A DNA stretch of 32,000 bases from Candidatus Electronema aureum (lineage in GTDB: Bacteria; Desulfobacterota; Desulfobulbia; Desulfobulbales; Desulfobulbaceae). Position 1 is the stretch's first letter, and each line of letters begins with the position of its first letter. A program made the position numbers and the translations under genes. The notes beneath the pieces are model-generated. The model was not told the DNA's origin. It ran no database searches and saw nothing but the letters and a program-made list of their open reading frames with translations. Of the stretch, positions 989 to 19,057 are shown one piece after another. Where the stretch lies: assembly GCA_004284765.1 (NCBI GenBank), contig NQJD01000001.1:1-32000 (forward strand), in the 5' to 3' direction.

Positions 989-1042
989 GAATTCTGAGCA
1001 GGGGCGAAGAGATATCGCCTCTGCCTTTTCTTGGAGGAAATT

Positions 1043-2101
1043 ATGGCTATTGTAAAAAGAGAAAGCGGTGCCTGGAAAACCGTGACCAATAAATTGAAAC
1101 AGGCAGGGATACGGATCAACACCGAAGGTGAACTGCTGCAATTGTTAGACAAAGAAAAAATAAAACATGCTGAATCTGTCGGACTGCTTGAGCAGAAAAA
1201 GCAAGAAGCTGATCAACGCTGCAAGAATGAAATTGCTCAAATATTCGCAGAGCAAGAGAACAGTCTGTCTTTAATACGTAAAGAATTCAGCAGGAAGATT
1301 CGTCCTGTTCAAGATAGAATTGATGCGCTTAAAAAACAGCAGGATGAAGTGAACGAAAAAAGTTTCGTTTACAAAATGTTCCATTTGCTTGAAATAATAA
1401 AATTGTCAAGCGAGGTAAAAAAGATGAATCTCAAGCTCAGGAAAATCACTTCGGACAAAGATGATACACTAAAAGAACAGAGTAATTTTTTTGATAGAAA
1501 ACGACTGGACGCAAATCAAGATCGTAATGACATTATATATACCATTAAAAATGAAATGTATGTCACAGGAAGGAGGATAGCTATTATAGAGGAAACATTA
1601 GCATCGAATGATTATTATGGTGCTGTTGCAGAGCTGAAGATGATCGATTTCCTCAGGAAGTTACCTGATAAATATCAGGTCATAAATGATGTTTCTATAA
1701 AATTAAACAAAAGCATACAGCTCGATAAAAAATGGATACAGTCTGTTCAAATTGATCACCTTGTTATTGGCCCATCAGGTGTCTTTATCATTGAGGTGAA
1801 AAACTGGAGTAAAAAATTTGCCTCTACAGGTGATTTTCATGATCCGTACAATCAAATCAAACGACATAACCGAGCATGTTATATCTTGCTTAAAGAACAA
1901 TGTGAGACAAAATTGAGAAACATAATCGCCTGCGCAAATCATCTTCCGTCCAAGACGGATGAAAAATATATCAAGGTTATGCCTATCGAACAAGTTATTG
2001 GATATATTCTTTGGTTCAAAGAGGAGATACATGATAATCAAGAAGTTGCGCAGATAGCCCGCTTTTTTGAAGGAAGAATTAACGATACTGTTTCTTGGTA
2101 A
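1043..2101 (+). CDS. Coiled-coil N-terminal region fused to a C-terminal NERD (PD-(D/E)xK nuclease-related) domain
   Basis: ORF 1031-2101. ATG at 1043 follows GGAGGA at 1033-1038. The N-terminal ~170 aa are K/E/Q-rich heptad-like sequence. The C-terminal part carries the NERD core IDHLVIGPSGVFIIEVKNW (D...ExK) plus downstream Q.KRH. The gene is visibly AT-rich compared with its flanks. Confidence 0.75.
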   Translation: MAIVKRESGAWKTVTNKLKQAGIRINTEGELLQLLDKEKIKHAESVGLLEQKKQEADQRCKNEIAQIFAEQENSLSLIRKEFSRKIRPVQDRIDALKKQQDEVNEKSFVYKMFHLLEIIKLSSEVKKMNLKLRKITSDKDDTLKEQSNFFDRKRLDANQDRNDIIYTIKNEMYVTGRRIAIIEETLASNDYYGAVAELKMIDFLRKLPDKYQVINDVSIKLNKSIQLDKKWIQSVQIDHLVIGPSGVFIIEVKNWSKKFASTGDFHDPYNQIKRHNRACYILLKEQCETKLRNIIACANHLPSKTDEKYIKVMPIEQVIGYILWFKEEIHDNQEVAQIARFFEGRINDTVSW

Positions 2102-3862: not shown

Positions 3863-5274
3863 GATTGTTTTTCCGTGCTGTTCTCAACCCGAAGAGGCTT
3901 GAGCAGCTCTTCGTCAGGGACGGTACAAGGCAGCGATCTACCAATGTACGCCTCAATATCGGGTAAATGAAATGCGCCTTCCTCACAGGCAAAGCTGACC
4001 GCAATGCCACTCATTCCAGCTCGGCCTGTTCTACCGATGCGGTGGACGTAATCCTCTGGTTCCTCTGGCAGCGTGTAGTTGACCACATGACTGATGCCAT
4101 CAATGTGAATGCCCCGGCCCGCCACATCAGTAGCGATCATCACCCCAGTCTTTTCCGCCCGAAACCGTTCTAAGCGAGACATGCGTTTCTGTTGAGGCAC
4201 ATCGCCAGTGAGCAGGGCTGCATTGATGCCAGTGCGTTTTAGTCGCTCATGGAGCCGGGCTGCTTCGCTTTTCATGTTGGTAAAAACCATAATCCGCTCA
4301 TGCGACTGCTGCGCGATAAGGTTGCAGAGTACGGTATATTTTTGCTCACCGGTAACAGTGTAAATAACCTGCTTGACCGTCTCCACCGCCACCTGATCTG
4401 GGTCGCTTTCAATATAGACCGGCTTCACGCACCACTGTGAGACCAGATGCTTGACATCCTCATTAACTGTGGCAGAGAACAGCATAGTCTGCCGCTGCTC
4501 TTTGGGCTTGATACGAGAGATAATTCGGCGCACATCCGGGATAAAGCCCATGTCCAGCATCCGGTCGGCCTCGTCAATGACCATGATGCCAGCCTGATCA
4601 AGAGTGATGATCTTTTTGGAAACATAATCTAACAGACGACCGGGAGTGGCCACAATTACATCTGTTGGACGTTCTGCGAGCTGCTGTGCCTGCTTTTGGT
4701 AGTCAGTACCGCCATAGACCGCAACGATGCGCAGCGAGGTATGCTTGGCAAGAGCCTTGCTGTCTTTGACAATCTGCATGATTAGCTCGCGAGTTGGGGC
4801 GATGATCAGAGCACGGGGTAGGCCAGGCTTGCGCAGGGCTTGCTTTTCGTTGAGCAAGCGGGTGAAAAGGGCAACGAGAAAGACCGCGCTTTTACCGGTG
4901 CCTGTGCCTGCCCTAGCGATGATATCTTTGCCTTCTAAGGCAGAAGGCAGAGCCTTTTCTTGAATTGGGGTGCAGTATTTGAAGTCCAGATCAGCAATGC
5001 CGTGCATCAGGGCTGGCGGCAGGGCGAAATCATGGAAGCGGCTGCGGCCCTCTACGGGATCAACCGGGTATTCGACGATGCTCCATTCCGGCTGCTTTGG
5101 CTTTTGGGGACGCTCTGGCCTGCGGCGGCGGGCTTGCTGCTGGCTTTCCGTAGGCTGGGTTTGCGGCTGTACTTCTTGGGCTGGCTTGGAGGTAGGTGCG
5201 GTTTCAGGCTGCACCTTGCTGGACCAGACCCGTTTAAGCTGTCTTCCTACCTTGGCAACAAATGCTTTGATCAT
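3859..5274 (-). CDS. DEAD-box ATP-dependent RNA helicase with a basic/Pro-Gln-rich N-terminal extension
   Basis: Q-motif region (F.DF.L...L..GI..L.F..CTPIQ), AGTGTGKS, PTRELI, VIDEADRMLDMGF, SAT, ARGID-like GRGIH and HRIGRTGRAG. The track ORF begins with TTG at 5313; the first ATG is at 5274. No clear SD for either, so the start is uncertain. The 3' end overlaps the nadC stop by 4 nt (convergent). Confidence 0.9.
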   Translation of the reverse strand: MIKAFVAKVGRQLKRVWSSKVQPETAPTSKPAQEVQPQTQPTESQQQARRRRPERPQKPKQPEWSIVEYPVDPVEGRSRFHDFALPPALMHGIADLDFKYCTPIQEKALPSALEGKDIIARAGTGTGKSAVFLVALFTRLLNEKQALRKPGLPRALIIAPTRELIMQIVKDSKALAKHTSLRIVAVYGGTDYQKQAQQLAERPTDVIVATPGRLLDYVSKKIITLDQAGIMVIDEADRMLDMGFIPDVRRIISRIKPKEQRQTMLFSATVNEDVKHLVSQWCVKPVYIESDPDQVAVETVKQVIYTVTGEQKYTVLCNLIAQQSHERIMVFTNMKSEAARLHERLKRTGINAALLTGDVPQQKRMSRLERFRAEKTGVMIATDVAGRGIHIDGISHVVNYTLPEEPEDYVHRIGRTGRAGMSGIAVSFACEEGAFHLPDIEAYIGRSLPCTVPDEELLKPLRVENSTEKQS

Positions 5275-5365
5275 ATATGAGAGGTGATACGGCAACAAAT
5301 GAGGTTGGTGCAAGGGAACAACGCGGCAATACCTGTCGCCCGCGTTGGCGCATGGGAGCGGGTTC

Positions 5366-5503
5366 CAAAATCCTAAACGCTTAGGATTTGCATTCCCATT
5401 AGCTTAGGATTCAGATTCCCAAACGTTTAGGATTTAAAATCCCATTAGCTTAGGATCCAAAATCCTATGAGAATAGGATTTGCATTCCCACTCTCATAGG
5501 ATT
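5366..5503. repeat. Six exactly phased 23-bp tandem units, each an imperfect dyad A(A/T)TCC(T/C)A-N6-(T/A)TAGGAT(T/C)
   Basis: Units start at 5366, 5389, 5412, 5435, 5458 and 5481. They read caaaatcctaaacgcttaggatt, tgcattcccattagcttaggatt, cagattcccaaacgtttaggatt, taaaatcccattagcttaggatc, caaaatcctatgagaataggatt and tgcattcccactctcataggatt. The array lies between the ABC-F stop (5534) and the helicase start. Confidence 0.9.
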
Positions 5504-5533
5504 TCGGCGGAGGCTCTGCTCCGCCGCATCCGG

Positions 5534-7144
5534 TCACGCTGCTTCCAGCTCCAGGCCGCAGCAGGTGGTCAGATAGTCGTCAAAGCTCATCCGCGCGTCC
5601 GTGATGCGGTCTGGCAGGAACTCGATGATCCGGTTGGCCACGGTTGAGACAAGCTGGTGATCGTGCGAGGAGAACAGCATTGCCTCTGGGTACGCGGTGA
5701 GCGCGTTGTTGAGGGAGGTAATGGATTCGAGGTCAAGATGGTTGGTTGGCTCGTCGAGAATCAGGGCGTTGGCTCCAGAAAGCATCATCCGCGATAACAT
5801 GCAGCGTACTCGCTCACCACCAGAGAGAACAGAAACTTTTTTCAGAGCTTCCTCACCGGAAAAGAGCATCCGACCGAGAAAACCTCGGACAAAGCTCTCG
5901 GTCTCCTGCGGCGGCGCGTACTGCCGCAACCAGGTGACGATGTTCATGTCCGTGTCTTTGAAGTAGGAGTTGTTCTCCTTGGGGAAATAAGCCTTACTGA
6001 TGGTCACGCCCCAGCGCACCGTGCCTGCGTCCGGCTCTAGCTCGCCCGCGAGAATCTGGAAGAAGGTGGTTTTCGCCAGGCCATTGGAACCGACAAAGGC
6101 GATCTTGTCGCCCTTGCCTACACTCAGGCTGAAATCCTTGAACATCGTCACCCCGTCAACCGTTTTGCTCAGGTTCTCGATCTCCAAGATGATGTCGCCG
6201 CTGGGTCGCTCTGGCTTAAAGTCAATAAAGGGATACTTGCGTGAAGACATGGGCATGTCTTCAATGGTCAGCTTCTCCAGCAGCTTCTTGCGGGAGGTGG
6301 CTTGCTTGGCCTTAGAAGCGTTCGAGCTGAAGCGGCGGATAAAGTCCTTCAGGTCTTGCTCCTTGGCCTTGGTCTTCTTGTTTTCAGTCTCTTTCTGGCG
6401 GAGTTGGAGCTGGCTGGCCTGCTGCCAGAAATCGTAGTTGCCAACATAGACCTGAATCTTGCTGTAGTCAATGTCTGCCATGTGGGTGCAGACCTGATTG
6501 AGGAAATGCCGGTCATGCGAGACGATAATAACCGTGTTCGAGAAGCGAGAGAGGAAGTTCTCCAGCCAAGTGATAGTGGCAATGTCGAGCTGGTTGGTTG
6601 GCTCGTCGAGGAGGAGAATGTCAGGGTTGCCGAACAGGGCTTGGGCGAGCAGCACCCGCACCTTGTCTGTGCCTTCCAGCTCCTTCATCTTCTTCTGCCG
6701 CAGCTCTTCGCCAATACCCACGCCATTGAGCAGCACTGCCGCCTCAGACTCGGACTCGTAGCCGTTCATTTCGCCGAACAGGACTTCCAGTTCGCCGGAG
6801 CGCATACCATCTGCCTCGGTGAATTCGGTCTTGGCATAGATTTTGTCCCGCTCGGCCATCACCTCGTAGAGCTTTTTATGGCCCATGATCACCGTGTTGA
6901 TGACGGTGTGCTCATCAAAAGCGAACTGATCCTGCCTGAGCACGGTAAGGCGTTTCCCCGGATCAATGGAAACCTGACCTTGCTGCGGGTCAATCTCGCC
7001 GGACAGTATCTTGAGGAAGGTGGATTTGCCTGCGCCGTTGGCTCCGATCAGGCCGTAGCAGTTGCCGGGGGTGAACTTAATGTTAACTTCTTTGAAGATG
7101 ACTCTTTTGCCGTAGGAGAGTCCAATATTGGTGGCTGTGATCAT
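5534..7144 (-). CDS. ABC-F family ATPase (YbiT-like, two ABC domains, no transmembrane domain)
   Basis: Two Walker A motifs (GANGAGKST, GSNGLAKTT), two signatures (LSGGE plus a divergent first one) and two Walker B motifs (LLLDEPTN, LILDEPTN). A Lys-rich interdomain linker is present (KKTKAKEQDLKDFIRRFSSNASKAKQATSRKK). The protein is colinear with E. coli YbiT as recalled. The likely start is ATG 7144 (MITATNIGLSYG), not the upstream 7237 of the track ORF. Confidence 0.9.
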   Translation of the reverse strand: MITATNIGLSYGKRVIFKEVNIKFTPGNCYGLIGANGAGKSTFLKILSGEIDPQQGQVSIDPGKRLTVLRQDQFAFDEHTVINTVIMGHKKLYEVMAERDKIYAKTEFTEADGMRSGELEVLFGEMNGYESESEAAVLLNGVGIGEELRQKKMKELEGTDKVRVLLAQALFGNPDILLLDEPTNQLDIATITWLENFLSRFSNTVIIVSHDRHFLNQVCTHMADIDYSKIQVYVGNYDFWQQASQLQLRQKETENKKTKAKEQDLKDFIRRFSSNASKAKQATSRKKLLEKLTIEDMPMSSRKYPFIDFKPERPSGDIILEIENLSKTVDGVTMFKDFSLSVGKGDKIAFVGSNGLAKTTFFQILAGELEPDAGTVRWGVTISKAYFPKENNSYFKDTDMNIVTWLRQYAPPQETESFVRGFLGRMLFSGEEALKKVSVLSGGERVRCMLSRMMLSGANALILDEPTNHLDLESITSLNNALTAYPEAMLFSSHDHQLVSTVANRIIEFLPDRITDARMSFDDYLTTCCGLELEAA

Positions 7145-7506: not shown

Positions 7507-7710
7507 TTACTTCTTCTGAACAACGTTCTCTGCGGCCAAGCCTTTCGGACCGTTAACCACATCAAAGGTGACTCGTGCGCCTTCTTGCAGGGATTTGAAA
7601 CCATCAGCTTTAATTGCAGAGTGATGGACGAATACATCCTTTCCACCATCTTCCTGAATAAAACCAAAACCCTTAGCATCGTTAAACCACTTCACTATAC
7701 CTTCTGCCAT
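7507..7710 (-). CDS. Cold-shock protein, CspA family
   Basis: 67 aa with [12 protein letters not shown] (RNP1) and VFVHHSAI (RNP2). GAGGAG SD lies 8 nt upstream. Confidence 0.95.
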
Positions 7711-7832: not shown

Positions 7833-8033
7833 TTACAGCTGAACAACCTTGTCCGCTGCCGGTCCTTTTGGGCCGTTGACGACTTCAAAGCTCACTCGTG
7901 CGCCTTCTTGCAGAGATTTGAAACCCTCGGCTCTGATCGCAGAATGATGAACGAACACATCTGGTCCGCCGTCCTGCTGAATGAAACCGAAACCCTTGGC
8001 ATCGTTAAACCACTTTACTGTGCCCTGTGCCAT
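7833..8033 (-). CDS. Cold-shock protein, CspA family (paralogue)
   Basis: [33 protein letters not shown].., roughly 80% identical by eye to the neighbouring copy. ATG 8033 with AAGGAG 9 nt upstream is preferred over the track's TTG at 8039. Confidence 0.95.
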
Positions 8034-8914: not shown

Positions 8915-10704
8915 GCCGCTGTCTGCCCTTTCGACTGCTGAAGAGCCTGATTCTTGGCCGCCACTTGCTCTTCCATCTCCCGGCTGAATTGCCGCAGAGC
9001 TTCGGTGATCTCCTGATCATTGATTGCCAAAATTCGAGCCGCCAACACCGCTGCGTTTTTGGCTCCAGACTTGCCGATGCCCATGGTTGCCACAGGGATA
9101 CCTGGCGGCATCTGCACAGTCGAAAGCAATGCGTCAAGGCCATTCAGCGGCGATGCGTCAATCGGCACGCCAATCACTGGCAAGGTGGTGTGCGCAGCAA
9201 TTACCCCAGCTAAATGGGCGGACATGCCTGCTCCGGCGATAATAATCTTTAGGCCGCGCCGGGCGGCGGTGCGAGCGTATTCAGCAGTTTGTTCCGGGGT
9301 GCGGTGAGCCGAGGAAATGGTGATTTCATGCTTGATGCCCATCGTGGCAAGGAAATCCGCAGCCGCCTGCATCACCGGCAGATCAGAATCCGACCCCATG
9401 ACAATACCCACTGCTGGGCCGGTATGCTTCTGGAGGCGGCGTAACGCTCGATGGCCGATATCCCGGCGGAAATAGCTGCCTTTCCACTTAATTTTATCGA
9501 CAGCCTTATACGCCCGCTCAATCGCCTTGCCGATGGAAATGTCCATCGCAGTCACGCCCAGCACTCGCCCGCCTGCGGTCAAGGTAGTCTGATTCTCGAT
9601 GGTCGTGCCAGCATGAAAGACCATCACATCCTTCAATTTTGCCGCATTAACCAGACCGGTGATCGGCTTACCTGCCTTATACGTGCCTGGATAGCCTTCT
9701 GAGGCCATGACCACGCAAACCGCCGGACGCGGGTCAATCTCCAGCTCGATTTCGTCTAGCGCACCGTCAATCGCCTTCTCGAAAATATCCACCAAATCAG
9801 TCTGCAAGCGCATCAACAGCGGTTGACATTCAGGATCGCCGAAACGACAGTTAAATTCCAGCACATTGATTTGTTCACCGTCGATCATCATGCCTGCGTA
9901 GAGCATTCCCTTGAAGGGACGACCTTCAGCAGCCATGCCTCGTACTGTCGGCAGCATGACCTCGTTCATCACTCGCATGGTCATGGAATCATCAAGCACC
10001 GGCGCGGGAGAATAAGCTCCCATGCCGCCGGTGTTAGGGCCACGGTCGCCCTCGAAGATTGCCTTATGGTCTTGAGAAGACGGCAATGGCAGAACGTTCT
10101 CTCCATCCACAAAAGCGATGAATGAAGCTTCCTCACCGGTGAGGAACTGCTCCACCACCACCCGGTTGCCTGCCTCGCCAAAGGCACGATCTTTCATAAT
10201 TAGATCAACAGCGTGCTTGGCTTCAGTCTTGGTCTGGCAAACCATCACGCCTTTTCCGGCGGCCAAGCCATCAGCTTTGACAACACAAGGCGCACCAAGC
10301 CGATCAATGAACTTCTTTGCCGGTTCAGGCCGATCAAAGGTCTCGTACTCGGCAGTGGGAATATTATATTTGCGTAAAAAATCTTTGCAGAAAACCTTAC
10401 TGCCTTCCAATTCGGCTGCGGCTGCGGTGGGGCCGAAGATGCGCAGCTCTTTTTCTTGAAAGCGGTCAACAATGCCTTTGGATAAAGCGTTTTCCGGGCC
10501 GACCACGGTCAGGCAAATGCTCTCCTTAATCGCAAAGTCGAGCAGCCCATCCACGTCGTCTGCCGCAATTTTGACGCAGGTTGCTAATTTCCGTATTCCA
10601 GCGTTTCCGGGGGCGCAGTAGATGGTCTTCACTTTCTCCGACTGGCTCAATTTCCACACCAGCGCATGTTCTCTGCCGCCGGAACCAATGACCAGAACCT
10701 TCAT
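8911..10704 (-). CDS. purD: Fusion protein: phosphoribosylamine-glycine ligase (PurD) plus a C-terminal PurE domain
   Basis: Starts MKVLVIGSGGREHALVWKL, with AAGGAG upstream of ATG 10704. An ATP-grasp body runs to ..YFRRDIGHRAL. A short linker (RRLQKHTGP) then joins in-frame to a complete PurE: VGIVMGSDSDLPVM, SAHRTPE, IIAGAGMSAHLAGV, PVIGVP, QMPPGIPVAT. The upstream 37 codons of the track ORF are probably not translated. Confidence 0.9.
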   Translation of the reverse strand: MKVLVIGSGGREHALVWKLSQSEKVKTIYCAPGNAGIRKLATCVKIAADDVDGLLDFAIKESICLTVVGPENALSKGIVDRFQEKELRIFGPTAAAAELEGSKVFCKDFLRKYNIPTAEYETFDRPEPAKKFIDRLGAPCVVKADGLAAGKGVMVCQTKTEAKHAVDLIMKDRAFGEAGNRVVVEQFLTGEEASFIAFVDGENVLPLPSSQDHKAIFEGDRGPNTGGMGAYSPAPVLDDSMTMRVMNEVMLPTVRGMAAEGRPFKGMLYAGMMIDGEQINVLEFNCRFGDPECQPLLMRLQTDLVDIFEKAIDGALDEIELEIDPRPAVCVVMASEGYPGTYKAGKPITGLVNAAKLKDVMVFHAGTTIENQTTLTAGGRVLGVTAMDISIGKAIERAYKAVDKIKWKGSYFRRDIGHRALRRLQKHTGPAVGIVMGSDSDLPVMQAAADFLATMGIKHEITISSAHRTPEQTAEYARTAARRGLKIIIAGAGMSAHLAGVIAAHTTLPVIGVPIDASPLNGLDALLSTVQMPPGIPVATMGIGKSGAKNAAVLAARILAINDQEITEALRQFSREMEEQVAAKNQALQQSKGQTAA

Positions 10705-13461: not shown

Positions 13462-14529
13462 ATGACAAATATATCCTATCTTCTCGAATTTATAATTAAA
13501 ATGCCACCTTTTATTAAACGATCTGGTGTAATCGTAGCAAATATTTTTCTTTTCTTGATTGTAGTTGCCGTAACAATCAGCTGTTCGGAGGTGTTTTTAC
13601 GATGGTATTACCGTGATGTTCTCTCCAGCGCAACCGGTGTGGACTATTTTCATAATCGTTCCTACCATCTATTTGCTAAGGAAAAAAATGTGTTTAATCT
13701 AAGAGGGAAAACTTTTAAAGCTGGAAAGCATCATTTGCTGAGAGTTGTTATAATGGGTGATTCTTTCACCTATGGACAAGGAGTCTATCCCTATGAAAAA
13801 AGATATACAGAACAGATGGAGTTGTTGTTTAAAAAAGAACATCCTGATCTTGATGTAGAATTTATCAATGTTGGGATATGTGGAATGGATCTTCTTGGTT
13901 ATAATAACAAAATTGTTAATTTTGTTGCAGCGTTACATCCCGACTTTGTTCTGTATCAATGGTACGTAAATGATATGGAAATTACTCGTGATTGGCTACA
14001 ACTTAGAATTCCTCAAATAATATCGAACAATACAGTGCATCGATTTTTCATAGAAAATTCTGTGCTGTATTTTATCTTACAGAGAGGCTGGAGTCAAATT
14101 AGGGCAATGTCGGGACAGCAGTTAGATTATACAGAATATCTTGTAAAAAGATTCAGCGATCCTGAGAATAAATATTCCATTGCGGCGAAAAAAGAATTAG
14201 ACAAACTTTTTGAAACCTTAGACAGAAGAAATATTCCACATGGAATTGTTCTTTTTCCAGATTTTAATACTAAAAAAGATAAATACAGACTTGCATTCTT
14301 GCATGAACAAGTCCATAAGGTATGCAAAGAACATCATGTCGATTACCTTGATCTTACAAAAACTTACAGTAAATATGATGACAATATTGAAGAACTATGG
14401 GCAAATATTTTTGATCATCATCCGAGTGCGCTTGCGCATCGTATAGCAGCTGAAAAAATTGTCGATTTTTTTGGCAATAAATGGCAGCAAATGGCTTTGA
14501 AAAACGCTAATCTAAAAAATAAAGAATAA
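13462..14529 (+). CDS. Membrane-anchored SGNH/GDSL-family hydrolase
   Basis: One N-terminal TM helix (VIVANIFLFLIVVAVTI). Block I VVIMGDSFTYGQG. Block V DHHPSALAH (DxxH). The gene and its flanks are visibly AT-rich. Confidence 0.75.
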   Translation: MTNISYLLEFIIKMPPFIKRSGVIVANIFLFLIVVAVTISCSEVFLRWYYRDVLSSATGVDYFHNRSYHLFAKEKNVFNLRGKTFKAGKHHLLRVVIMGDSFTYGQGVYPYEKRYTEQMELLFKKEHPDLDVEFINVGICGMDLLGYNNKIVNFVAALHPDFVLYQWYVNDMEITRDWLQLRIPQIISNNTVHRFFIENSVLYFILQRGWSQIRAMSGQQLDYTEYLVKRFSDPENKYSIAAKKELDKLFETLDRRNIPHGIVLFPDFNTKKDKYRLAFLHEQVHKVCKEHHVDYLDLTKTYSKYDDNIEELWANIFDHHPSALAHRIAAEKIVDFFGNKWQQMALKNANLKNKE

Positions 14530-17457: not shown

Positions 17458-17709
17458 TTAAGGCGATTCGTTGATTTTCTTGCAGTTGCTATAGACAACC
17501 TCAGGGTCAATGTCCGCTCCCGACTCCCATTCCACTGTGTCAAATGACACTCTGACTTTTACAAATGAATGAGGACTTTTTATGCGGACAAATATTCCAA
17601 AATCAAGATACGGTTTCATGTCGAGGAAGCCGTTTTCTCCGTTGTCAAAGGCAAGATGCAGAATGAAATTATCTTGCGGGCGCACATCGATGACGGCAGG
17701 ATATTTCAT
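17458..17709 (-). CDS. DUF2442 domain protein
   Basis: 83 aa. The pattern V..V.P..NF.L.L.F.NGE...LD..PYL ... W..GADIDPE is the DUF2442 signature as I recall it. Confidence 0.75.
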
Positions 17710-17722
17710 CTATTTTCTTCGG

Positions 17723-17908
17723 TTATTGCAGCGGCTGTATCTTGAATGGCTCTTCTCCGTTCATCATAAGATTCCAGTCAGCCATAAGTTCATCCTGATG
17801 AATAGCCTTGTATTCAGCATAATAAACATGAAAATGAGGCGGCGGATGTTCATTCGGCGCAAAATACATTCGAACGATTATGCCATAAAACATAGAGATA
17901 GTAGGCAA
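17723..17908 (-). CDS. DUF4160 domain protein, apparently shortened
   Basis: TTG at 17908 (GGGAGA 4 nt upstream) gives (M)PTISMFYGIIVRMYFAPNEHPPPHFHVYYAEYKA-IHQDELMADWNLMMNGEEPFKIQPLQ. N- and C-terminal DUF4160 blocks are present. The middle ~25 aa found in typical 85-90 aa members appears to be missing. Confidence 0.7.
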   Translation of the reverse strand: MPTISMFYGIIVRMYFAPNEHPPPHFHVYYAEYKAIHQDELMADWNLMMNGEEPFKIQPLQ

Positions 17909-17941
17909 GGTATCTCCCGTTTCACACACTGCCTTTCAAAA

Positions 17942-18946
17942 TTACGCTTTATTTTTTATATGATAATTTGAGTCGAGACATTTTAAACATGTTTCTGGCA
18001 TCTTTTCATTACCTTTGAATGATTCACGTATCTTATTCATTTTGTCACTATTCCATAATGAAATAATGCTGGAATTTAAAACATTACCTAATGTAACATC
18101 TGGAGACTTGTAGCCGCAACACAGCGACATATCTCCTTCTGGCCAAATCATTACCCTCCTAAAAGGACTGCTGCACTTTATTTTTACTTTTTCAAATTCA
18201 CCACCAGTGGCAGGTGTTTCATTTATATGGCGAAATCCTTGAAATTCAACAATGTCAACTTTATCTGCCCAAAATTCCTTAAACATAGCTTTTTCTGTAT
18301 AATTCGTAGGATTAACGCAAAATGACACGCGCACAGTAGGAAATGACTTGCTTCTTCGCTCCCTATTTTTAATAAAATTAAGAATATTTTCCACAATCTT
18401 GTCGTAATCATTGGAACGCCTGCTTTTTTTATATCTCTCTACAGTGGCAGCATCAATAGAAATGCAAATATGCCTTAATCCTGAATCTATAAGTAGTAGC
18501 GCGAATTCAGAATCAAGAAGCAATCCATTTGTATGGAGAAAAATATCCATTATTTGATTTTCATTGCAATAATTAATACCTTTCATTAGCAATTCTTTCT
18601 GCAATAACGGTTCAGCGGAAGAGCCGAAATTTATAGCGCAAAGGCCATTCTGCACCCCTTCATCTATTATTTTCTTCAGCAAAACCCATGTCATAGTAGC
18701 ACCATTTCTTGATCTGTACTTTTGATGACACATCGCACAATTTTGATTGCAAGCATCTTCCAGATCAACATCTATATGCAATGGAAATTTTGAATCTCTA
18801 TATTCTTCATGTGTATCTTTCCAATTACGTCTATACTCCAAGTATTTTCCCCCAAAAATACCTTCCATTATTTCGAAAGGATCAATTTTAACTAAAGACT
18901 CAAGGTCGTTGCTTTTAAATTTTTCATACTTTCCTTCATGAATCAT
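17942..18946 (-). CDS. Radical SAM enzyme with a C-terminal SPASM/twitch-like Cys cluster
   Basis: CNQNCAMCHQ (Cx3Cx2C) about 65 aa in, and a GSSAEPLL SAM-binding-like motif. The C-terminal cysteines are KCSSPF..GDMSLCCGYKS...PETCLKC. The gene is strongly AT-rich. Confidence 0.85.
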   Translation of the reverse strand: MIHEGKYEKFKSNDLESLVKIDPFEIMEGIFGGKYLEYRRNWKDTHEEYRDSKFPLHIDVDLEDACNQNCAMCHQKYRSRNGATMTWVLLKKIIDEGVQNGLCAINFGSSAEPLLQKELLMKGINYCNENQIMDIFLHTNGLLLDSEFALLLIDSGLRHICISIDAATVERYKKSRRSNDYDKIVENILNFIKNRERRSKSFPTVRVSFCVNPTNYTEKAMFKEFWADKVDIVEFQGFRHINETPATGGEFEKVKIKCSSPFRRVMIWPEGDMSLCCGYKSPDVTLGNVLNSSIISLWNSDKMNKIRESFKGNEKMPETCLKCLDSNYHIKNKA

Positions 18947-19057
18947 AGCTATATCTCCAATAATTGGTTATTAAACTACTCTATCATTCAATAAACTTAG
19001 TTATGCGTCATTGGTATGATTAATTACCTTTGTTGCAATAACTATACTTTCATTAAC

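Follow-up and report, generated by a model that had tools for sequence, protein, structure and literature searches.

What are six identically phased palindromic repeats doing between an ABC-F ATPase gene and a DEAD-box RNA helicase gene in a freshwater cable bacterium, and would they act there as RNA or as DNA? The repeats lie in the window, a stretch of 32,000 nt from Candidatus Electronema aureum GS (contig NQJD01000001.1, positions 1 to 32,000 of the forward strand). A preliminary description of this DNA took them for six tandem stem-loops in a minus-strand transcript of a cold-response neighborhood, and named as second option a phased operator array for a dimeric DNA-binding protein. Comparative data favored the second option.

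Positions 5366-5503 were made up of six 23-bp dyad units without gaps between them, exactly as first described, and showed a superperiod of 46 bp (Table 1). Units followed the layout A(A/T)TCC(T/C)A, six variable bases and TAGGAT(T/C); the earlier layout held for the units, except that its right half-site was given as 8 nt and so overlapped the stated 6-nt center. Each unit held a 20-bp imperfect palindrome in intergenic DNA, in keeping with the imperfect extragenic palindromes of about 20-40 bp that form REP/BIME elements. Tandem Repeats Finder returned a period of 23 (5.5 copies) and, more strongly, a period of 46 (2.8 copies, score 163), and the self-match of the array rose from 0.66 at lag 23 to 0.74 at lag 46. 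As had been noticed before, units shared their starts in pairs; the first 10 nt were common to u1 and u5 (9 nt in the preliminary description) and likewise to u2 and u6. Units u5 and u6, both diverged, were mutually inverted copies that formed a 46-bp super-palindrome. The heptamer TAGGATT occurred eight times in the window, seven of them within the 138-bp array, while shuffled sequences contained 3.15 +/- 1.45 and none of 100 shuffles reached eight. The intergenic sequence was identical in assembly GCA_942492785.1 (OW818638.1, 2.94 Mb) and in two Logan assemblies encoding the same helicase protein; a closed-genome paper exists for Candidatus Electronema aureum (PMC10030654).

Table 1. Coordinates of the array units and neighboring features in the window.
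Feature	Position	Strand	Sequence or remark
Array unit u1	5366-5388		caaAATCCTAaacgctTAGGATT
Array unit u2	5389-5411		tgcATTCCCAttagctTAGGATT
Array unit u3	5412-5434		cagATTCCCAaacgttTAGGATT
Array unit u4	5435-5457		taaAATCCCAttagctTAGGATC
Array unit u5	5458-5480		caaAATCCTAtgagaaTAGGATT
Array unit u6	5481-5503		tgcATTCCCActctcaTAGGATT
GC-rich hairpin between ABC-F stop codon and array	5506-5527	minus	CGGCGGAGcagagcCTCCGCCG; without T-tract
ABC-F family ATPase gene, YbiT/PRK15064-like, 536 aa	5534-7144	minus	PRK15064 match, E 4e-203
RhlB-like DEAD-box RNA helicase gene, 471 aa	3859-5274	minus	match, E 1e-151
Cold-shock-domain (CSD) gene, upstream of ABC-F	7507-7710	minus	
Cold-shock-domain (CSD) gene, upstream of ABC-F	7833-8033	minus	
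Segment directly upstream of helicase ATG	5275-5319	minus	common to closest relative (L133); absent from PJ and E. halotolerans
Weak sigma-70-like pair in segment 5275-5319	5313-5284		TTGCAC (5313-5308), 18-nt spacer, TATCAC (5289-5284)

The ABC-F gene, the helicase gene and the two csp genes were identified as in the preliminary description. The array began 30 nt downstream of the ABC-F stop codon and ended 91 nt before the helicase ATG, within an intergenic region of 259 bp (~53% GC). A scan of positions 5000-5800 for sigma-70 promoters and terminators returned no promoter above threshold and no terminator at the array, the GC-rich hairpin was not called by the terminator scan, and no T-tract was found after the hairpins at the array. 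The segment directly upstream of the helicase ATG, with its weak sigma-70-like pair, is possibly a new, weak helicase promoter or a short leader.

In relatives, the same junction was differently built. The ABC-F stop and the helicase ATG were separated by 16 bp in Ca. Electronema sp. PJ and by only 2 bp in E. halotolerans, neither of which had an array, and the csp-csp-ABC-F-helicase synteny was the same in both, so that gene order was kept with or without the array. The closest relative (L133; helicase 89% identical) had a gap of 266 bp, the middle of which was an unrelated hairpin-rich insert with a loose ~43-bp periodicity; sequence in common with the window was restricted to ~8 nt past the stop codon and ~45 nt before the ATG. 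Because the junction measured 16 and 2 bp in PJ and E. halotolerans and held a different insert in the closest relative, the window array is, on this sequence comparison, a recently acquired, lineage-specific insertion into a formerly tight junction, across which ABC-F and helicase were probably co-transcribed.

This history bears directly on the proposal of a locus-specific cold riboregulator, with six tandem stem-loops acting either in the 5' leader of the helicase or in the 3' UTR of ABC-F. The csp, ABC-F and helicase genes did form a conserved neighborhood, but the array was not conserved with it, and its absence from the orthologous loci of PJ and E. halotolerans contradicted such a riboregulator. 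The same repeat also occurred at loci with no link to cold shock. For the helicase/ABC-F locus, the account of a riboswitch-like cold-shock leader thus falls, being highly improbable, and what remains is a recent insertion that splits a conserved ABC-F-helicase operon.

It was well supported that the window array is one copy of a repeat family, here called type A, specific to cable bacteria. The consensus unit of the family was AATCCTAAGCTAATGGGATTT or AATCCTAAACGTTTGGGATTT plus 2-3 nt, in arrays of 4 to 9 units, and the form AATCCTA-N6-TGGGATT-N3 was found at unrelated loci of other Electronema genomes; in the same frame, the minus strand of the window array read AATCCTA-N6-T(G/A)GGA(A/T)T-N3. 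When one genome per species was scanned with a strict two-unit pattern, matches fell on two contigs of Ca. E. nielsenii F5 (L012, L010) and three of the Desulfobulbaceae MAG S01.Bin068 (L007, L011, L004); outside cable bacteria there were just four single chance matches. Two further species carried type-A arrays at L140 and L142. A looser metagenome scan (at least 120 loci) added a wetland contig (L029); among the metagenome matches listed, all but a few were either chance matches of two units or iteron-like 23-bp arrays unrelated to type A, and L029 and L067 were the only ones from cable bacteria. Consensus units were 71-100% identical between loci and species.

The genes around type-A arrays varied. 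Arrays separated a TPR gene from the promoter of a gene for a 357-359-aa protein, and a partial duplicate of this TPR/357-359-aa gene module, with its array, preceded an MBL-fold gene. Others separated exbB from the gene of a TonB-dependent receptor or followed a Uup-like ABC-F gene (L011). Dispersal of the motif away from the ABC-F and helicase genes, which the preliminary description had held to speak against its reading, was therefore seen in part, since arrays of the same unit stood at several unrelated loci in relatives. At L011, the order of ABC-F stop, hairpin and sense-oriented type-A array was the same as in the window, with a different ABC-F paralogue and in another species. By a rough post hoc estimate, which assumed ~4 ABC-F genes among ~2,700 genes, such a recurrence at two loci would be unlikely by chance.

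One alternative explanation is a neutral or selfish minisatellite. On this view, a palindromic 23-bp unit now and then reaches new intergenic sites and expands or contracts by slippage and unequal exchange, and the window copy is a recent passenger under no selection for a role. The absence of the array from orthologous junctions, the different insert at the same spot in the sister lineage, the varied flanking genes, the unit numbers of orthologous arrays (6, 7, 7 and 9) and the two diverged, mutually inverted units u5 and u6 were all consistent with it. So were the breaks of short-read assemblies at arrays, as in the N gap at L004; the arrays explain some contig breaks in short-read assemblies of cable bacteria. 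Against it, the type-A loci inspected had neither a transposase nor terminal inverted repeats and showed no consistent target-site duplications, plasmid and phage blastn gave no match to the array, and a pattern scan of viral contigs returned only four single chance matches. The constancy of the repeat at its best-conserved locus, presented below, argued further against a neutral origin, and we regard the minisatellite as quite unlikely.

Two kinds of mobile element were considered for the family and rejected. A MITE did not fit, as flanks were not conserved across loci and terminal inverted repeats with target-site duplications were lacking; an 8-bp direct repeat, GCGGGCAA, flanked the array only at the F5/L140 locus. 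No Y1 transposase (RAYT) gene lay near any array in the loci fetched, and the sole PF01797 gene (L137, 6200-6631) encoded an ordinary TnpA of the IS200 type, which had hairpin ends of its own but neither an array nor related repeats.

The best-conserved setting of type A, its home locus, was the promoter of the 357-359-aa gene, a member of a family with many paralogues per cable-bacterium genome. In four species, whose proteins were 71-99% identical, a type-A array of 6 to 9 units stood upstream of the orthologous gene in identical orientation. The array ended 14 bp (its last full 23-bp unit 12 bp) upstream of the -35 box of a promoter of the form TTGACA-17-TATGAT or TATAGA in all four, and at L007 it was located after a canonical terminator and upstream of the promoter. 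Across these species the array consensus was 76-100% identical, while the 80 nt beyond the array were at shuffle level (56% vs 55%), and both inner subtypes, AAGCTAAT and AAACGTTT, were kept within randomized flanking intergenic DNA. The retained unit consensus with both subtypes and the fixed position relative to the -35 box speak against a neutral minisatellite.

The protein encoded at the home locus matched the Pfam families DUF4469 (Ig-like), HU-HIG and HU-DNA_bdg with modest scores, and is referred to as HU-DUF4469. For its AlphaFold2 model (mean pLDDT 90.8), Foldseek ranked 4fmr first, a Bacteroides protein with a putative DNA-binding function (E 3e-13); HU structures aligned with the N-terminal domain at TM 0.7-0.8, and the remainder was Ig-like. 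The predicted structure thus shows an HU fold for this candidate binder. No HU-DUF4469 gene was present within the 32-kb window, and neither side of the window array had a canonical promoter at the home-locus distance. The best match in GS to the paralogue carrying type-A arrays was 54% identical, and GS may lack the presumed cognate type-A binder. Arrays at L136 and L004 also lay far from any HU-DUF4469 gene. A profile search (HMM from alignment A1) found no HU-DUF4469 genes adjoining arrays outside cable bacteria.

Other HU-DUF4469 paralogues had upstream arrays with unrelated dyad motifs, in the same 23-bp phase and next to the same kind of promoter. These sister arrays comprised TCACnnnnGTGA in GS (L139; six units, 46-bp superperiod), a related motif in Electrothrix scaldis (E. 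scaldis, L146), GCATAnnnTATGC in S01.Bin068 (L011; ~ten units) and CTCGCTCGA in Electronema sp. JM (L151; alternating orientation). Among 12 HU-DUF4469 loci examined, eight had an array at most ~300 bp upstream of the gene, two (L145, L067) had one ~2 kb upstream, heading a co-directional gene cluster, and two had none. Arrays appeared to be enriched at HU-DUF4469 promoters in freshwater and marine cable bacteria, which is not expected of a neutral minisatellite. Divergent promoter regions held arrays at L139, L146, L011 (L011-C), L136 and probably L029, and no array stood between convergent genes among the loci inspected. For three of the eight arrays at most ~300 bp upstream (L139, L146 and the sister array of L011), which lie in divergent promoter regions, a 3'-UTR role is impossible.

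The phase itself was constant. When ~193 kb of cable-bacteria loci were scanned blindly for periodicity (lags 15-34), every array with a self-match of at least 0.6 had period 23; at a threshold of 0.5, lag 23 gave 22 hits, against just 3 for lag 22 and 2 for lag 24. In control loci of other organisms, many different periods were seen. The scan also revealed further motif types at L136, L142 and L145, and the wider class reached a density of ~1 array per 30 kb in the flanks fetched. All arrays of family and class had a period of exactly 23 bp, about two helical turns, as in iteron and operator arrays. The 23-bp period may be an inheritance from one ancestral array rather than a protein footprint. 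Unrelated 23-bp dyad arrays retrieved with the same pattern lay, for example, beside a possible replication-initiator ORF (no family assigned) with an adjoining SSB-like ORF, and inside a phage O-like ORF, all of these ORFs being identified by eye only; such arrays near replication-type genes look like iterons.

Whether the repeats are recognized as RNA or as DNA was approached through folding, strand and conservation. The minus-strand RNA of positions 5356-5533 (array, GC-rich hairpin and short flanks) folded at -85 kcal/mol (z -9.3), 17 kcal/mol better than the plus strand (-67.8 kcal/mol, z -6.4). This greater stability as minus-strand RNA would suit the cold riboregulator, but the lowest-energy fold was made of long helices between units rather than the six separate stem-loops that had been suggested, single units reaching only -4 to -7.4 kcal/mol. 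Rfam likewise offered the cold riboregulator no family, as the array had no match at the gathering threshold, and relaxing the cutoff to E 1 yielded only tRNAs and chance-level matches.

The strand asymmetry pointed out in the preliminary description was real in this array, but the G-U argument drawn from it in favor of a minus-strand RNA did not hold, as it came down to a single consensus position, T6/G15. Across 54 type-A units, G.T mismatches (10) and A.C mismatches (9) were about equally frequent outside pair 6-15, and the T6/G15 asymmetry belongs to the consensus unit itself, being copied through tandem duplication. The G.T-compatible strand was the sense strand in the window and at L011; at the home locus, in the duplicate of that locus and at L004 it was antisense. 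Covariation, which had been suggested as a check, was not seen: T3C4C5, A7, T14 and G16G17A18 were invariant or nearly so, while pair 2-19 was mismatched in 15 of the 54 units. Being invariant, the half-site cores are uninformative on pairing. The invariant half-sites, the lack of a general wobble bias, the fixed distance to the -35 box and the placement in divergent regions together favor recognition as double-stranded DNA by a dimeric protein.

An RNA role at the window copy nevertheless has a precedent in E. coli REP325, six palindromic repeats inside the yjdMN operon that act as a partial terminator and stabilize the upstream mRNA (PMC4550694; bioRxiv 10.64898/2026.03.23.713779). By analogy, the array would be transcribed with ABC-F, and its hairpins and inter-unit helices, aided by the GC-rich hairpin ahead of them, would stop part of the transcripts short of the helicase and shield the 3' end of ABC-F from exonucleases, so that the levels of both genes would be set independently. 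The position of the array between co-directional genes that are tightly coupled in relatives, the strong sense-strand fold and the recurrence of the ABC-F stop-hairpin-array order at two independent loci all speak for such a role. Several observations speak against it: the G.T-compatible strand was antisense to the flanking genes at the best-conserved loci, where the array preceded a promoter; sister array types stood in divergent promoter regions; half-sites were invariant, with pair 2-19 often mismatched and no general wobble bias; hairpins of single units were weak; and no hairpin was followed by a T-tract. On balance, a REP325-like role was considered somewhat unlikely, but it is the main rival of the explanation given next.

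The explanation we tentatively prefer, at close to an even chance, places the function of the window array at the DNA level: it would offer a row of sites to a dimeric protein and, as a satellite copy, uncouple helicase expression from that of ABC-F. Each 23-bp unit would bind one dimer of a protein that recognizes a specific DNA sequence, most likely a member of the expanded HU-fold/Ig-domain (DUF4469) family, and adjacent dimers would assemble into a short nucleoprotein filament. At home loci this filament would abut the -35 box in the promoter of the HU-DUF4469 gene itself, an arrangement that suggests autoregulation. In the window, a satellite copy together with ~120 bp of other sequence would have been inserted into the 2-16-bp ABC-F/helicase junction, where the protein-occupied array could act as a block or insulator between the expression of ABC-F and that of the helicase. 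A weak new promoter may lie downstream of the array, in the TTGCAC-18-TATCAC segment, and any read-through by RNA polymerase would yield very stable helices that reinforce the uncoupling. Several observations weigh against this explanation: the window contains no HU-DUF4469 gene, the paralogue associated with type-A arrays has a best match of only 54% identity in GS, neither side of the window array has a canonical promoter at the home-locus distance, some arrays are remote from HU-DUF4469 genes, and both in the window and at L011 a sense-oriented array comes after an ABC-F stop and a hairpin, as would suit an RNA or terminator role.

A broader interpretation, which we consider unlikely, is that cable bacteria possess an undescribed system in which HU-fold/Ig-domain (DUF4469) paralogues are each paired with their own 23-bp-phased palindrome array. 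Each array would abut a strong TTGACA promoter, and the specificities of proteins and arrays would have co-diverged, giving Electronema and Electrothrix together at least five motif types. The resulting sequence-specific nucleoprotein filaments would regulate or organize the chromosome, and the window array would be a satellite that brings the helicase, and possibly ABC-F factors, under control of the system. If HU-like proteins do bind the arrays, they would constitute a new sequence-specific nucleoid or regulatory system in a multicellular uncultured bacterium.

Among known repeat systems, CRISPR arrays share with the cable-bacteria arrays a regular arrangement of repeats that are partly palindromic and comparable in length (23 bp or more); they were rejected as an explanation, the units being contiguous without spacers, only 4 to 10 in number and accompanied by neither cas genes nor a leader. 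To our knowledge, the units bear no convincing similarity to Fur, LexA, KorB/ParB, MraZ or DnaA boxes. The earlier statement that no such element has been described was fair for the type-A family, for which neither an Rfam match nor a literature report was found; searches on DUF4469 and on short repeats of cable bacteria gave nothing relevant, and the closed-genome papers cover only IS-type repeats.

The likeness to REP/BIME elements, REP325 in particular, is closer. Both consist of short, imperfect, clustered intergenic palindromes, six of them inside an operon, some with alternating unit orientation and a two-unit superperiod, and both combine strong RNA or cruciform potential with lineage-variable presence or absence and a historical connection to HU. 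The place typical of REP elements, a transcribed 3' region between co-directional or convergent genes, was occupied by the window copy and at L011. In contrast to REP units of ~35-40 bp plus linkers, the cable-bacteria unit measures 23 bp and has no linker. REP sequences occur in tens to hundreds per genome; the strict scan found few type-A loci per genome (two in F5, three in S01.Bin068), with ~1 array of the wider class per 30 kb in the flanks fetched, and no RAYT gene accompanied the arrays in the loci fetched. Many sister arrays occupy divergent promoter regions that are probably untranscribed, and it is the half-site sequence that is conserved, not the pairing.

Arrays of iterons and operators bound by dimeric proteins include the O-protein sites of the lambda origin, plasmid iterons, sopC of F and the parC centromeres of pSK41 or R1. 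They have in common with the cable-bacteria arrays contiguous head-to-tail repeats of ~20-23 bp, about two helical turns, with a dyad in each unit. For the class as a whole, the array lies directly upstream of the promoter of a neighboring gene for a putative DNA-binding protein, and unrelated 23-bp dyad arrays adjoin replication-type genes (identified by eye only). Unlike these systems, the cable-bacteria arrays are chromosomal and occupy several loci, with no Rep/Par gene, AT-rich unwinding element or DnaA boxes nearby; none of these was present in the 259-bp intergenic region of the window, which therefore does not resemble a replication origin. In place of a winged helix or ribbon-helix-helix, the candidate binder combines an HU fold with Ig-like domains, and its gene adjoins the array at home loci, with none beside the window copy (within 32 kb). 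The architecture does resemble known operator/iteron arrays and REP clusters. Freshwater and marine cable bacteria appear to carry many such intergenic arrays with one fixed 23-bp period and several motif types, and what would possibly be new, if upheld, is the pairing of 23-bp-phased arrays with an expanded, uncharacterized family of HU-like proteins.

Of the roughly five independent loci with type-A arrays, which are built of the 23-bp dyad units AATCCTA-N6-T(G/A)GGA(A/T)T-N3, two had an ABC-F gene directly before the array, since that of L011 (from the Desulfobulbaceae MAG S01.Bin068, a species other than that of the window) follows such a gene as the window array does. In both cases, a small hairpin lay past the ABC-F stop codon and the array was in sense orientation. 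A small open reading frame (ORF) with CxxCxGxG zinc-finger motifs started 12 nt downstream of the L011 array. In the closest relative (L133, JGI 3300056860), the spacer between the ABC-F and helicase genes (266 bp) was unlike that of the window and rich in other dyads (GCTGCGGGGAGAaatCTTCCCGCAGC, GCCAGgcgcggtCTGGC, CCAGAAAATTTCTGG and GGAACTTTCC-like), which recurred about every 43 bp. This junction seems prone to gaining hairpin arrays. The same neighbourhood in E. halotolerans (L137) harbored an IS200-type TnpA (Y1 transposase). This element, which carries end hairpins of its own, had inserted between an additional csp gene and the Sua5-like gene, and it has no relation to the arrays.

Coordinates of arrays and associated features in the window and in the related and unrelated contigs
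Sequence	Positions	Feature
L011	2472-2635 and 2663-4495	type-A array and the ABC-F gene (Uup-like, 610 aa) that it directly follows
L133	1640-1860	dyad-rich region at ABC-F/helicase junction
L137	6200-6631	IS200-type TnpA
L139 (GS, same genome as the window; OW818638.1, at ~0.93 Mb)	9763-9900	six units, exact 23-bp phase
L146 (Electrothrix scaldis)	2660-2860	array related to that of L139
L012	1686-1693 and 1909-1916	8-bp direct repeat flanking home-locus array
L004	2125-2221	type-A array with ~100-N run
L136	4059-4196	other 23-bp-phased dyad array
L142	9155-9315	other 23-bp-phased dyad array
L145	89-203 and 829-944	other 23-bp-phased dyad arrays
L067	3053-3167	other 23-bp-phased dyad array
L004	6763-6854	other 23-bp-phased dyad array
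Window	31690-31830	another phased array
Window	29606-29691	tRNA gene
Window	1001-2000, 13501-14500, 17501-19000, 30001-31000	islands of low GC content (31-41%, vs ~53% elsewhere)
L045	1-90 and 14534-14631	GTCCCAAATAGGTGGGACATTTT arrays, at contig ends
L087	5884-5975	GTCCCAAATAGGTGGGACATTTT array, at contig end
L066	11506-11620	array within phage O-like ORF (by eye only)
L076 (rumen Bacteroidales)	6727-6956	ten units of ATCCTATGACGGGAGGATTACTA

Phased arrays were also associated with genes encoding HU-fold/Ig-like (DUF4469) proteins. The GS array L139 consisted of CAC-N4/6-GTG type units with a 46-bp superperiod, and the TTGACA -35 box of a gene of this family began about 12 bp past its end, within an intergenic region between divergent genes. 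In Electrothrix scaldis, a related array likewise preceded the counterpart of this gene. A stereotyped promoter and leader was found upstream of these paralogues (L012, L140, L142, L007, L139, L146, L011, L151 and L144), with a perfect TTGACA, a 17-nt spacer, TAnnnT located 85-89 nt from the ATG (103 in L151), and a ribosome-binding site of CAGGAGAA type. This common layout suggests that expression of the paralogues is strong and similarly organised.

At the home locus, where a type-A array abuts the promoter of such a gene, an 8-bp direct repeat, GCGGGCAA, occurred on both sides of the array in Ca. E. nielsenii F5 (L012, L010) and a close relative (L140), while none of this type was seen at other array loci. 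The repeat could be a remnant of the array's mode of origin. Type-A arrays break or gap short-read assemblies, as displayed by the N run inside one of them (L004, also from S01.Bin068), and counts from draft genomes are therefore too low.

Other motif types surfaced unsought in cable-bacteria contigs (L136, L142, L145, L067, L004), including CAACAGTAtgTACTGTTG, GTCACTC-N6-GAGTGAC, CTCCTA-N6-TAGGAG and 46-bp palindromes. The window itself held another phased array of about 6-7 units of 22-23 bp each (TTTTnCCTATCAnAAGG and similar), at the margin of a low-GC island that spans 30.0-31.5 kb (GC content 31-33%), adjacent to a tRNA gene and upstream of a gene starting past ~31900. The four low-GC islands of the window are probably horizontally acquired segments; the first spanned a NERD-domain gene adjoining a toxin-antitoxin-like HTH gene.

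Arrays of 23-bp dyads were present in unrelated organisms too (L045, L087, L066, L076). Those of L045 and L087 adjoined a possible replication-initiator ORF, with no family assigned, which had an SSB-like ORF as its neighbour, both recognized by eye only.
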